In this document: one piece after another, positions 56,973 to 60,676 of the stretch
Numbering within the stretch: the first letter of the stretch is position 1
How the letters are laid out: every line of letters begins with the position of its first letter
Assembly (NCBI GenBank): GCA_001778695.1
Contig: MFHU01000012.1
Coordinates: 1-60,676 of the forward strand
Direction: 5' to 3'
Length of the DNA: 60,676 nt
From: Candidatus Giovannonibacteria bacterium RIFCSPHIGHO2_12_FULL_44_22
GTDB taxonomy: Bacteria; Patescibacteriota; Minisyncoccia; UBA11713; 2-01-FULL-45-33
Position numbers and translations under genes: made by a program
The notes under the pieces: model-generated
Told to the model about the DNA's origin: nothing
The model's input: only the letters and a program-made list of their open reading frames with translations
Databases searched by the model: none

Positions 56973-57411
56973 GGCATTACACAAACTATGTTAAACAAAT
57001 TCAACTTAAATAAGCCAACAAAGCGGGAACACTGTTAGGTCGTCTTAACTTGTATTCAAAATCCCGCCTACGGCGGGATTTTGAGTTCATAGCGCGTGCG
57101 AACTTTGACAAGATTAGTTAATTCGTAAGTGCATTTTCTAACAAGACGGTTATAAGGGCATATGGCGGATGGCTCGAGATAAGATGGGCGATGAAGGACG
57201 TGGCGTGCCTGCGATAAGCTTGGGGGAGGTGGCTAGCAACCTTTGATCCCAAGATTTCCGAATGGGGAAACCCCGCGCCGAGAAATCGGCGTGATCTTGC
57301 ATCTTAAATGGTGCCGGAAGCGAACCCGCTGAAGTAAAACATTTCAGTAAGCGGAGGAAAAGAAAAAAATATTTATTCCCTTAGTAGCGGCGAGCGAAAA
57401 GGGAGCAGCCC

Positions 57412-57540
57412 AGATCGTCAATGCTGCGCATTGACGCGCTGAAAACGCTGACTGGACGCTGACAGTCGCAGAATAAATTCTGCGTTAGTCTGCGTTTCTT
57501 CTGCGTAAATCGGCGCGCCACTGCGCAGCAGTGGCGAAGT
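57412..57540 (+). repeat. 129-nt structured intervening sequence, copy 1 (domain I, around the E. coli ~270 region)
   Basis: It is extra sequence relative to E. coli, between GCAGCCCAGA and the CTGGAAAGG block, and is homologous to 58597..58725. Confidence 0.75.
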
Positions 57541-57749
57541 TGTAAGTTTAATCCTGGTCTTTAATGATGGGGAGAATAAAAACATTAGCAGAACGGTCCT
57601 GGAAAGGCCGGCCAAAGAGGGTAATAGCCCCGTAAACGACAATGATTTTTTACTTTCTGGATTTTACTTGAGTACCTCGAAAAATGTATAGTTCGGGGGA
57701 ATCTGCCAGCACGAGCTGGTAAGGCTAAATACCATCTATCATCGATAGT

Positions 57750-57781
<32 letters not shown>

Positions 57782-57842
57782 GCCCGGTGAGGGCGATGAA
57801 ATAGTACCTGAAACCATATGCTTACAAAGAGTCGGAGCCCCG

Positions 57843-57956
57843 CCCCACTTTTACGATGTAATTTTTATTTGCGAAGTATTACCACGCGAGTAATCTTGCA
57901 AAGATAAAAAAGTCTGAGAGACTTTTTTATGAAATTATTGTTTTGTAAAAGTGGGG
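57843..57956 (+). other. AT-rich expansion/intervening sequence in the helix-25 region
   Basis: A 12-bp perfect closing stem (CCCCACTTTTAC / GTAAAAGTGGGG) encloses about 90 nt of AT-rich hairpins that E. coli lacks at this point. Confidence 0.65.
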
Positions 57957-58596
57957 CTGGGTGACGGCGTGCCTATTGAAGAATGAGCCAACGAGTTATC
58001 CAACACCTTTCGTCTAAGGGCACCTAGCCCGGAGGCACAGGGAAACCAAGTGTTAAAAGCGCGATTTTCTCCGACGTTACGTCGGAGAAAAAAAGATGTT
58101 GGATAGACCCGAAGCGAGATGAGCTTACCATGACCAGGGTGAACCTCGGAGAAATCCGGGGGGAGGCCCGAACCGTTTAGCCGTTCAAAACTATCGGATG
58201 AGTTGTGGTAAGGAGTGAAAAGCTAATCGAATCTCGTAATAGCTGGTTCTCTCCGAAATAGCTTTTCGGCTAGCGCCCGCCAAAAATTAGCAGGTAGAGC
58301 TACTAGATGGACTTGACAGGGAGAAATCTCGCGAGTCCAACTAAACTCCGAATGGCTAATCTATTTAGGCGGGTAGTCAGACCATGGGGGCTAAGCTCCA
58401 TCGGTCAAAAGGGAAACAGCCCAGATCTCAATCTAAGGTCCCTAAATTTCTGCTAAGTGCAAAGAAGGTGGTGAAGTTTCTTAAACAGCGAGGAGGTTGG
58501 CTTAGAAGCAGCCATCCTTTAAAGAGTGCGTAACAGCTCACTCGTCAAGAGACTTCGCGCCGAAAATTATCGGGGCTAAGCAGAGTACCGAAGGTG

Positions 58597-58725
58597 AGAT
58601 CGTCAGTGCATAGCACTGACGCGCGGAAAGCGCGGACTTGACGCAGACAGTCGCAGAAAATAATTCTGCATGTTCTGCGTTTATTCTGCGTAAATCGGCG
58701 CGCCAATACTATGCATTGGCGAGGT
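58597..58725 (+). repeat. 129-nt structured intervening sequence, copy 2 (helix-45 position)
   Basis: It is inserted after ACCGAAGGTG and before GTAGGAGAGCGTTCC. It shares the core GACAGTCGCAGAA...TTCTGCGTAAATCGGCGCGCCA with copy 1. Confidence 0.75.
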
Positions 58726-59453
58726 AGGAGAGCGTTCCAAATGCAGTGAAGCTCACGGCGCGAGCCGGGGTGGAGCGTTTGGAAGTGAGAATGTTGGCAC
58801 AAGTAACCGCAAGTTCGGTGAAATACCGTACCACCGAAAACCCAAGGTTTCCTTGGCAATGGAAATCAGCCAAGGGTTAGTCGGGCCTAAGCCAATGGCG
58901 AAAGCCGGAGGCGATGGACAGCTGGTTAATATTCCAGCACTGCGTATTGTTTTGACGGCAGGACGGAGCCTAGTATGTCGGGCGCGTTATTGGATTCGCG
59001 TTCATTGCGTAAGCGCGGGGCGGAGGAAAATCCCTGCCCAGCCCCGCCACGGCGGGGGCGCGCGAATGTTTTGAAAATTTTTGCAGCAATGCGAAAAAAT
59101 TCGGTAAAGCAGGCTTCCCAGAAAATTGTCTAAAATTATCAATACGCAACCGTACCGGAATCCGACACAGGTGGGTGGGAGGAGAACTCCCAGGTGAACG
59201 AGTGAAAGATCCCCAAGGAACTCGGCAAAAAAGCGGACGTAACTTAGGGATATGTCCTTCCCGCCAACATTAGATAATATCAAAATGAAGGCGGGACGCA
59301 GCGAAAGTACCCCTGGCGACTGTTTAACAAAAACACAGCTCCCTGCAAACTCGTAAGAGGAAGTATAGGGGGTGATGCCTGACCAATGCGAGAAGGTTAA
59401 CGCTGGCGTTCGCGTGGAGCAATCTGCGCGGGTGACTGGCCGAAGCCCTCGTC

Positions 59454-59485
<32 letters not shown>

Positions 59486-60122
59486 TCTGGAATTATTTTG
59501 AAATGATTCCGGAAGGACTAGGACTGTTATAGCGATACATATGTTAAACAAAAATAGCTGCCTCATTGTGTAGCAATACGCAATTGGTCCAAAATTACAT
59601 GGCTATATGCTGGAAACTCCGCAAGTATCCTCAAGTACTTTGTGTCCTAAACCAGGTTTGGGTCATAAAGTGAAAATCTGTGAGGTGGCGCGGACAATCA
59701 GCAGGAAACTGTAATATCTAAAGGAGGAAAAGAACATGAAAAATGACTGGGACGTACTTGTCCAAAGACGTTGGTGGATGTCTCGTGCAGACATCGACGT
59801 TCTTTACTACAAGTGGAAGACGGGACAAATTCAAGTTGGAGATGAAGAAATGCTGAGAGAGTTTCAGGCTGTTCGTTCTGAAGAAATAAAGATCGAAGCA
59901 GCCGAGATGCCAGAATCTCCAGCTGTCTTCATGTTCGGCGGAATGTTGGATGCAATGTTCGAGAAAACTCCAAATGGGCAAAAGTAGTTCAAGCCCTTCC
60001 TGTAAGGAAGGCGCAAAGAAACTCTTTGCCTCTTCCTTTAGGTATTACAGGATCCTCAGATACCATACGCCGTGCATCTCTAAGTAGATGAAGATATGGT
60101 ACTTCGCCCCAAGGAAGCGAAC
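59486..60122 (+). mobile_element. Group I intron in 23S rRNA (between CCUAAGGU and AGCGAAAUUCC, near E. coli position ~1931)
   Basis: It interrupts a universally conserved exon sequence. Four core-like elements are present: P-like TGCTGGAAA (59608..59616), Q-like AATCAGCAGG (59696..59705), R-like TCAGATACCATACG (60056..60069) and S-like AAGATATGGTAC (60091..60102). A P8-like hairpin CATCT-ctaagt-AGATG is also present. The 3' boundary is uncertain by a few nt. Confidence 0.75.
59736..59987 (+). CDS. Intron-encoded small ORF (83 aa), not a recognisable homing endonuclease
   Basis: An AAGGAGG SD lies 8 nt upstream of the ATG. The ORF sits in the loop closed by a 20-bp stem (59709..59728 with 60031..60050). 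No LAGLIDADG, GIY-YIG, HNH or His-Cys motif is visible. Confidence 0.5.
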   Translation: MKNDWDVLVQRRWWMSRADIDVLYYKWKTGQIQVGDEEMLREFQAVRSEEIKIEAAEMPESPAVFMFGGMLDAMFEKTPNGQK

Positions 60123-60676
60123 AGCGAAATTCCTTGTCTGGTGAGTTCAGACGCGCACGAAAGGTATAACGACTGGGGGACTGTCTCGGGGATTTACTCG
60201 GTGAAAATGCGATACCGGTGAAGATGCCGGTTAAGTGCAGTTAGACGAAAAGACCCCGGAAGCTTTACTGCAAGTTGTTATTGGCTTTACGTTTTTACTA
60301 CGTAGCGTAGTGGGTAGGCTTTGAAATGCCGCTCTCGGGCGGCATGGAGCCGCCAATGAAACACCCATTTTTAAAAATGTAAAATCTAACCTGTCCGGCA
60401 AAACCGGGTGGGGACAGTAGCTGCTGGGCAGTTTGTGTGGGGCGCAAGCCTCCTAAAAAGTAACGGAGGCGTTTATTAAGGTCGGCTAGCTCCGGATGGA
60501 CATCGGAGCGATAGTGCAATGGCACAAGCCGGCTTAACTGGAAGTCGGACATGACGACCAGATACGAAAGTAGAACATAGTGAACCGACCGTGGGCACTC
60601 GATGCCGCGGAAGATTAACGGATAAAAGCTACTCCGGGGATAACAGGCTAGTTCCGCCCAAGAGTCCATATCGACG

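Follow-up and report, generated by a model that had tools for sequence, protein, structure and literature searches.

The window analysed here is one whole contig of 60,676 nt (MFHU01000012.1) from Candidatus Giovannonibacteria bacterium RIFCSPHIGHO2_12_FULL_44_22, whose genome is assembled as 643 kb in 17 contigs with a completeness rating of 100%; a size of about 643 kb is usual for bacteria of the candidate phyla radiation (CPR, Patescibacteria). Its end is occupied by a 23S rRNA gene (57142..60676, on the forward strand, as are all features of the window given below), which matches the Rfam model LSU_rRNA_bacteria with 1799 bits, is truncated by the contig end, and is single-copy in the assembly as a whole. 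This gene is interrupted by a 637-nt insert (59486..60122) that looks like a group I-type intron but has C60122 as its final base, and the insert in turn contains an open reading frame (ORF) for an 83-residue protein, ORF83 (59736..59987). Because there is only a single rRNA gene, the intron must be either spliced or tolerated. Two contigs from JGI metagenomes (Ga0156306 and Ga0209210) are 100% identical to the window, and one of them (L025) continues through the remainder of the 23S rRNA gene, which has no additional intron, into a 5S rRNA gene.

Insertion site and group I core

The insert splits the universal 23S sequence CCUAAGGU|AGCGAAAUUCC, with the 5′ exon, ...ACGGTCCTAAGGT, stopping at 59485 and the 3′ exon, AGCGAAATTCCTTGTC, beginning at 60123. 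Removal at exactly these boundaries gives back the universal exon sequence, as expected for an intron in a conserved gene. Counting from the modified positions (pseudouridines 1911, 1915 and 1917, and m5U1939), we take the junction to be U1931|A1932 in Escherichia coli numbering; on this count U59485, the last nucleotide of the 5′ exon end (59472..59485) ahead of the 5′ splice site, is U1931, and the 3′ exon start AGCGAAAUUCCUUGUC (60123..60138) runs from 1932 onwards. The site would then be the junction of helices 69 and 71 in domain IV, at the subunit interface; the peptidyl-transferase centre belongs to domain V. We also considered a 23S intervening sequence processed by RNase III, which would be expected in helix 25 or 45 as a simple long hairpin, and rejected it in view of the site at 1931 and the group I core described next.

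The Rfam model Intron_gpI (RF00028) aligns over its full length to 59485..60113 and assigns a 318-nt ORF block to the P6 loop, with a score of 17.3 bits (E 0.071) that lies below the gathering score of 50 bits. Because the window copy itself scores so low, the case for a group I intron rests on its relatives, which score 27–81 bits overall: two ORF83-bearing relatives reach 54.9 and 44.1 bits, and ORF-less introns with the same backbone reach 27–45 bits. We aligned 16 backbone relatives, entering the window copy minus the loop of a 20-bp stem described below. Their consensus structure has 78 pairs, with 97% of cells paired as compared with 35–47% when partners are slid, and 39 pairs show compensatory changes; none of 500 shuffles of this alignment matches the observed values. 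Covariation in the relatives backs P3, P4, P5, P6, P8 and P9, the helices of the core among them, and a P2 hairpin is also part of the consensus. We consider it nearly certain that the insert is derived from a group I intron.

These results bear out much of an earlier description of this locus made from the letters of the window (the sequence-only reading). It had proposed a group I-type intron of about 637 nt interrupting invariant 23S sequence; the length is exactly that, and the identity agrees with the full-model Rfam alignment, the scores of the relatives and the 39 compensatory pairs. P3, P7 and P8, which it had traced by eye, are there as well, P3 and P8 with covariation and P7 with two double changes relative to canonical relatives; the core includes the P3/P7 pseudoknot. 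The Intron_gpI scan that it had suggested as a check came out favourably as to the alignment of the entire model and unfavourably as to the score. Its placement of the intron near the peptidyl-transferase centre has to be given up: in sequence terms, the helix 69/71 junction of domain IV is not proximal to that centre. The terminal C, the U-A pair in P7, the recombinant make-up of the intron and the copies of ORF83 in other introns, all treated below, go beyond what it had noted.

In the 5′ part of the intron, a P1 extension hairpin, UCUGGAAU / AUUCCGGA (59486..59513), begins at the first base of the intron, and 10 of its 13 pairs show compensatory changes. It is followed by a guide segment, AGGAC-UAGGACUGUU (59514..59528), whose 59519..59528 portion pairs with exon nucleotides 59472..59481 (AACGGUCCUA, E. 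coli 1918–1927) in a 10-bp helix that is 100% paired in the 16 sequences. Four of these pairs covary with the host exon, and the guide strand tracks the helix 69 variants CGGUCC, UCGUCC, UCGUUC and CUAUCC among hosts; this argues that the RNA still recognises its own 5′ exon. The U expected ahead of the splice site, U59485, is present and could pair either with G59515 (a wobble pair with one bulged A; G in 15 of 16 sequences) or with A59514 (a Watson-Crick pair, according to RNAalifold), so the register of the splice site is ambiguous. Downstream, an invariant GCUG (59557..59560) is complementary to C60122 plus the AGC of the 3′ exon and forms a candidate P10-like helix, as predicted by RNAalifold; as both GCUG and its exon partner are invariant, no covariation signal is possible, and GCUG is present also in relatives that end in the usual terminal guanosine (omega-G).

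The remainder of the core follows. The 5′ strand of P3, CAUGGC (59598..59603), pairs with 60069..60074 and, by eye, covaries with its counterparts in three canonical introns, L020, L021 and G044, which are described below. P4-P5-P4′ occupies 59609..59702, the 5′ strand of P7 60059..60065, the 3′ strand of P3 60069..60074 and the P8 hairpin 60075..60090, the last two with covariation; the 3′ strand of P7 is at 60097..60102. The intron closes with a P9 hairpin (UUCGC / GCGAA, loop motif AAGGAA) that abuts the terminal C (60103..60122 together), and three of four P9 pairs covary. The AGGA of the P9 loop is invariant and complementary to UCCU in the 3′ exon, again an invariant partner that can give no covariation signal. 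An apparent copy of the exon junction near the 3′ end of the intron, CCAAGGAAGCGAA, was examined and dismissed: AAGGA(A) is the conserved P9-loop motif, and GCGAA belongs to P9 as its 3′ strand, whose counterparts in relatives covary (GUGAU, UCGAA, UGGAU, GCGCU). Part of the likeness to the junction is therefore coincidence.

A terminal C and an altered guanosine pocket

The final base of the intron is C60122 and not omega-G. Shifting the splice sites to obtain a terminal G is not an option, as this would add bases to or remove bases from the universal AAGGU-AGCGAAAUU, which is intact in 18 of 18 genes with introns of this kind. The pocket in P7 is altered as well. In the canonical introns L020, L021 and G044, P7 (CAGAGACUACACG ... 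GAUAUAGUCC) is GACUA/UAGUC; in the window (CAGAUACCAUACG ... GAUAUGGUAC) it is UACCA/UGGUA, two double substitutions that preserve pairing, within a 5′ strand G-A(bulge)-UACCA and a 3′ strand UGGUAC. By our own alignment, we take U60061-A60101 to occupy the place of G264-C311 in the Tetrahymena intron, which makes the first of these double changes a replacement of G-C by U-A. U60061 then stands in the position of the guanosine-binding G, with A60101 as its partner, and the window has this U-A pair where a G-C guanosine-binding pair would be expected. In Tetrahymena, cofactor and terminal G are both bound by the G264-C311 pair, by way of a base triple, according to PMC2588497 (citing Michel et al. 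1989).

Three censuses link the two departures. A search of 401 same-class genomes for AGCGAAATTCCTTGT preceded by any base but T recovered 17 inserts at L1931, with G as the last base in 12, A in three and C in two (the window and genome G074, whose intron, L044, measures 258 nt). A scan for the variant P7 motif across 185,579 species genomes gave 19 loci, two of them chance matches in unrelated DNA; the other 17 are all L1931 introns with a terminal C. Finally, a phylum-wide scan (401 genomes) with an R/S pattern that left the pocket positions free gave 63 matches, of which 60 have G...C and two, again the window and G074, have U...A. The U-A pocket and the terminal C occur together in 18 of 18 members of what we call the omega-C subfamily; the 15 other sampled L1931 introns have a canonical pocket where it is readable, and their last base is G in 12 and A in three. 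Across the omega-C lineage, whose hosts are Moranbacteria, Kaiserbacteria and other genomes labelled Patescibacteria, every helix is kept unchanged, as are the terminal C, the bulged A and the bases next to the pocket. Fifteen of the 17 distinct members are ORF-less and measure 246–289 nt.

Several individual loci deserve mention. The one odd match of the phylum-wide scan (G065:C9:20051-20113) shows A at both pocket positions (CAGAAACAACACG...GATATTGTAC) and is probably a chance match. The L1931 introns that end in A are L027 (genome G309), L030 (G064) and L041 (G274); two have the canonical G-C pair, and L027 was read on the 3′ strand only. Five contigs (L044, L055, L058, L061 and L049) carry this CPR-type intron and 23S gene, yet come from metagenome-assembled genomes labelled Bdellovibrionales or Caldithrix; because their rRNA features match Patescibacteria, these labels are probably binning or labelling errors. 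In L046 (JBBTSJ010000039.1), a 2.8-kb piece of a 23S gene holds four Intron_gpI matches (81, 61 and 45 bits among the scores), three of them besides the omega-C intron, in a dense packing.

We know of no pocket-pair change in Cbu.L1917, a 23S group I intron of Coxiella burnetii that reportedly lies at a different site from L1931, lacks a terminal G and ends in A. The L1931 introns of Thermotoga and Simkania reportedly have a canonical terminal G. Cbu.L1917 is described as self-splicing in the title of Raghavan et al. 2007. According to PMC11270868, the Thermotoga intron (self-splicing; Nesbo and Doolittle 2003) and the Simkania intron (unspliced; Everett et al. 1999) occupy the same site as the window intron, and the Simkania case indicates that a ribosome can tolerate an unspliced insert at 1931. 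Position 1931 is a known site of CPR 23S introns, 23IS7, which includes the I-ShaI intron (Tsurumaki et al. 2024, PMC11270868); 222 ORF-less group I introns are recorded in CPR 23S genes (PMC11270868). The window intron is like the 23IS7 introns in site, host group and general core, and ORF-less forms are common there; unlike it, the ones described carry LAGLIDADG_1 or no ORF, with no mention of a terminal C, a U-A pocket or an ORF83-type gene (PMC11270868). No report of a terminal C in a group I intron was found in the limited literature searched.

How the omega-C introns might work can be discussed with reference to Tetrahymena, where altering the G264-C311 pocket pair shifted the specificity for the nucleoside, and ligation of the exons called for a terminal base changed to match (Michel et al. 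1989; Been and Perrotta 1991; both as related in PMC2588497). In sequence, the omega-C subfamily shows the same kind of paired change of pocket and terminal base. The geometry differs: the Tetrahymena change from G-C to A-U leaves the purine on the same strand, whereas the U-A pair of the omega-C introns puts it on the other strand and goes with a pyrimidine as the terminal base (for the mutants, again PMC2588497). The major-groove pattern of a U-A pair (the acceptor O4 of U and the donor N6-H of A) would suit the N4-H/N3 edge of cytosine. One could therefore imagine that in this subfamily the group I pocket for the nucleoside has been re-specified in nature for C, with the terminal C docked and perhaps a cytidine nucleotide in place of guanosine as cofactor; we regard this as rather improbable.

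ORF83 and its probable passage between introns

The protein encoded by ORF83 is acidic (11 basic and 15 acidic residues) and has no His, no Cys and no family match; its N-terminal half is Trp-rich and slightly basic, and its C-terminal helix is rich in Met and Phe. Only two homologs were found in 5.8 billion protein clusters, 88% and 83% identical and both of 83 residues. Several features of the three copies indicate a gene. The pairwise ratios of nonsynonymous to synonymous substitution rates (dN/dS) are 0.23, 0.17 and 0.17, with 10, 14 and 10 amino-acid changes. In permuted sets, each substitution was moved to a randomly chosen site with the same base; amino-acid changes were then as rare as in the real copies in 0.3%, 0.02% and <0.02% of the sets (P 0.003 to <0.0002), and only 16–42% of the sets were free of stops; all three real copies are open. 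The one insertion and one deletion that separate the copies are both whole codons, and the start, the stop and the Shine-Dalgarno (SD) sequence are conserved. These patterns make it very likely that ORF83 truly encodes a small protein, kept by purifying selection, and that it is translated.

For the ORF83 protein, profiles from Pfam, NCBIfam, PHROGs and the PDB, nuclease profiles included, gave no match even at E = 10; an AlphaFold model has four helices with a predicted local distance difference test (pLDDT) score of 56, and Foldseek against the PDB found nothing below E = 6. The sequence-only reading had seen none of the LAGLIDADG, GIY-YIG, HNH or His-Cys signatures of homing enzymes in the ORF, and the profile searches agree, for PD-(D/E)xK as well; the structure prediction and profile searches it had suggested turned up no fold, no family and no homology to a homing endonuclease. 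An exhaustive profile search of 1.84 billion representatives gave one extra match, P0003 (E 3e-14), a protein of 4813 residues with tandem PKD-like repeats; its five matches run through a short D-x-Y-x-W-K-x-G-like string, and we judged it to be repeat inflation and no homolog. Two six-frame matches were taken as spurious, one in G220 (E 1e-4) that contains stops and is antisense to another gene, and one in G061 (E 4e-3) that contains a stop. No relatives were found in GTDB genomes or viral contigs, and metagenomes yielded only 100% identical copies from the same organism. A ribosome-binding module common to ORF83 and the small-gene cassettes upstream of the 23S gene was also looked for by comparison; it is not shared.

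The gene is looped out from an extension of P6, a 20-bp stem between 59709..59728 and 60031..60050 with two G-U pairs and a stability of about −27 kcal/mol. The stem is found in the minimum-free-energy fold (z = −7.9 for 59700..60060) and is preserved in both homologous introns, with one compensatory change from A-U to U-A. Its 5′ strand contains the SD sequence AAGGAGG (59721..59727), 8 nt ahead of the ATG, and its 3′ strand is therefore an anti-SD strand; SD and spacing are the same in all three ORF83 copies. The sequence-only reading had described both the stem and its coverage of the SD, and the fold and the homologs corroborate this. Its conclusion that translation and intron folding should be mutually exclusive is too strong: the SD is confined to the distal 8 bp of the stem, and strict exclusion is not required because the basal 12 bp, worth −12.7 kcal/mol, could form P6 by themselves with the SD open. 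Downstream of the ORF, the 3′ untranslated region (UTR) has two conserved hairpins, CCUUCC/GGAAGG and GCAAAG/CUUUGC (59995..60029), that are kept in the homologs; CCUUCC and GGAAGG resemble the SD and the anti-SD, and an alternative pairing could be conceived.

The order of transcription suggests how the gene may be expressed. No promoter-like site was found inside the intron, and the mRNA would therefore be the pre-rRNA or the excised intron. The SD is transcribed 303 nt ahead of its partner strand, and the ORF ends at 59987, 44 nt short of that strand; a temporal ordering is as likely as exclusion. Because the SD emerges about 300 nt before the complementary strand, ribosome loading would be limited to a short co-transcriptional interval in which one ribosome could load on the SD, or else to rare opening of the stem. 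After termination at 59987 the stem would close, completing P6, burying the SD and allowing the core to fold without ribosomes running through it. A similar arrangement is known from the T4 genes for I-TevI, for I-TevII and for I-TevIII, whose ribosome-binding sites are sequestered in stable stems (PMC2988022). As in these, ORF83 is looped from a peripheral helix, and its consensus SD, some 8 nt ahead of the AUG, lies within a very stable stem (PMC2988022). Unlike ORF83, which has no promoter in its intron and is no recognisable endonuclease, the T4 genes have their SD freed by late transcripts that start inside the stem (PMC2988022).

Comparison of the window intron with its relatives indicates a composite origin. 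Its outer parts (59486–59613 and 60051–60122) are 74–82% identical to the omega-C subfamily and 20–61% identical to L020 and L021. The block formed by stem, ORF and 3′ UTR (59709–60050), in contrast, is 85–100% identical to L020 and L021 and unalignable with the omega-C subfamily, and P4-P5-P4′ has a long P5 extension of the L020/G044 type, unlike the short hairpin of the subfamily. By our own count we place the L020 intron, which lies just 3′ of the P-loop, at about E. coli 2262; it carries ORF83 and the stem in P6 and also a LAGLIDADG_2 gene downstream of P9. G044 has the same intron at the same site with the LAGLIDADG-side ORF present and a P6 of only 14 nt. L021 (1..1245 of a contig from Logan SRR22216445) has two group I introns in tandem around a 13-nt exon, AGCGAAAUACCUU (23S 1932–1944): intron 1, at L1931, is canonical, carries LAGLIDADG_1 and ends in G, and intron 2, at about 1943/44, carries ORF83 in P6. 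Both ORF83-bearing introns of the relatives, L020 and that of L021, have the canonical P7 pocket.

ORF83 is present, in sum, in three introns at three 23S sites and on unrelated backbones. The window intron is a mosaic that very probably gained its ORF block by recombination. On the simplest reading, recombination between co-resident introns carried a block of P5′, P4′, P6 and ORF into an omega-C backbone. Invasion driven by an endonuclease, with the flanks co-converted, leaves such a pattern, as established for T4 (Bell-Pedersen et al. 1990, as cited in PMC3984707); the charge of the protein and its missing motifs argue against ORF83 as a classical nuclease. It seems to behave like a mobile gene despite having no nuclease motifs, a view drawn from its distribution. 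In T4, endonuclease genes are mobile independently of the intron core (same source). ORF83 is like that case in that the intron backbones it occurs in are unrelated and that adjoining intron sequence was transferred along with it (PMC3984707); it is unlike it in lacking a nuclease motif, and its mechanism of mobility would have to be read from distribution.

Two further features of intron loops are of note. L053 (CAYHMS010000052.1) is a 480-nt omega-C intron with a structured insert of 220 nt in the P6 loop, closed by a 13-bp stem. It was considered as a relative of ORF83 and set aside, as it has no similarity to it and no forward ORF; because an unrelated insert sits in the same P6 loop, P6 seems to be where cargo preferentially lands. 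A 23-nt palindrome, TGTCCTAAACCAGGTTTGGGTCA (59643..59665), lies in the P5 extension loop of the window intron and is one copy of a repeat scattered through the genome. This repeat, TG(A/T)CC(C/T)AAACC(A/T)GGTTT(G/A)GGTCA in 17–23 nt, has six copies in the 643-kb genome (the others, in G000, at C5:37482, C5:38148, C13:13033, C17:64367 and C17:64395) and further copies in related genomes; it is not in the ORF83 introns L020 and L021. It may be the binding site of a dimeric host protein or a small mobile repeat. Elsewhere in the same 23S gene, two insertions of about 129 nt (57412..57540 and 58597..58725) lie in different helices and are 81.5% identical to each other.

Alternative explanations and significance

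On balance we lean towards the following composite explanation. The window holds a group I-type intron at the CPR hotspot U1931|A1932, with a backbone (P1–P3, P7–P9) from the normally ORF-less omega-C subfamily; another intron lineage very probably supplied, by recombination, ORF83 and the P6 extension together with P4′ and the 3′ portion of P5. ORF83 would be a selfish gene riding in the intron, one that either furthers its own spread into group I P6 loops or goes along with it, expressed as outlined above. The intron is probably still removed precisely, as suggested by the exon-guide helix that tracks the host exon sequence; its 3′ splice site would be set by a C-specific pocket or by helices adjacent to the site, and not by a docked terminal G.

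Several points weigh against this explanation. A terminal G and a G-C pocket pair are needed for canonical exon ligation; the window copy has neither and lies far under the Rfam threshold, and it could be defective in splicing or retained. The swapped P4-P6 domain may also be a misfit with its new backbone. The 18 omega-C introns are a single lineage, so that the link between pocket and terminal base rests on one evolutionary event. As to the protein, ORF83 has two known relatives among about 15 billion proteins, no motif and a pLDDT of 56, and its net acidic charge is unusual for an enzyme acting on nucleic acids. The ORF region also has strong RNA structure (z = −3.7), and part of the conservation may be at the RNA level.

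The insert might instead be a dead, unspliced group I derivative, either retained in the mature 23S rRNA as an expansion at helix 69/71 or excised by nucleases to leave a fragmented rRNA. The terminal C, the U-A pocket pair and the 17 bits in Rfam fit such a relic, as do several other non-intron-type insertions in the same 23S gene and the unspliced 23S group I intron of Simkania at this site (title of Everett et al. 1999, as cited in PMC11270868). Yet all core helices are maintained by compensatory changes, and the 10-bp guide helix follows the host exon, which a tolerated relic would not preserve; the terminal C and the pocket neighbours are invariant in 18 of 18 members with no drift, and a retained guide helix would compete with helix 69 in the sole rRNA gene. 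We therefore consider a dead intron unlikely. It is quite improbable, too, that ORF83 is untranslated and its open frame a by-product of a conserved structured RNA domain in P6. Shuffled sequence does fold far less well than the ORF region, several substitutions leave predicted pairs intact, the product has no family, fold or motif, and the SD is inside a −27 kcal/mol stem. RNA structure nevertheless does not account for the excess of synonymous changes: dN/dS is 0.17–0.23, amino-acid changes are fewer than in at least 99.7% of position-shuffled sets, and three open copies, whole-codon indels and an AAGGAGG at ideal spacing in all three are set against the 16–42% of shuffles that are stop-free.

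Given a translated ORF83, it might serve as a maturase or chaperone, a helper that binds the RNA of particular introns and moves together with the P4-P6 domain to which it binds, and be no mobility factor at all. The transferred block joins P5/P4′/P6 and the ORF, the N-terminal half is Trp-rich and slightly basic, and L020 has a LAGLIDADG gene of its own, so that ORF83 is not needed there as a homing enzyme. We doubt this role, as the protein has a net acidic charge, relatives with no ORF (15 of the 17 distinct members of the subfamily, and G044) do without it, and the P5 regions differ among the three ORF83 introns. A decaying piece of a former homing-endonuclease gene would explain why ORF83 is found in the usual place of an intron endonuclease, and L1931 introns of CPR bacteria usually carry LAGLIDADG_1 (PMC11270868). 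Against this, the three copies are all of 83 residues with conserved start, stop and SD, they are under purifying selection, and there is no similarity to endonuclease profiles even at E = 10; this origin is very improbable indeed.

Group I introns in rRNA genes from CPR bacteria are already known, and the presence of the intron is in itself ordinary. What is new is twofold: a putatively mobile orphan gene in P6, and a widespread backbone lineage that has neither omega-G nor the G-C pocket pair. Textbooks hold the terminal G and the G-C docking pair to be invariant. If the omega-C introns splice, they would be a natural system for the choice of a 3′ splice site without omega-G, with members that are conveniently short (about 250 nt); if the pocket is indeed re-specified, they would be the first natural group I ribozyme with altered specificity for the cofactor or the terminal base. 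There is also a consequence for annotation: because the subfamily scores below the Rfam threshold, such introns may be missed or given wrong boundaries. The occurrence of ORF83 across three backbones and three rRNA sites would mean either a new kind of mobility protein or that introns haul cargo genes for other purposes. If the first is true, ORF83 would found a new class of genes that hop between introns without a known nuclease fold.

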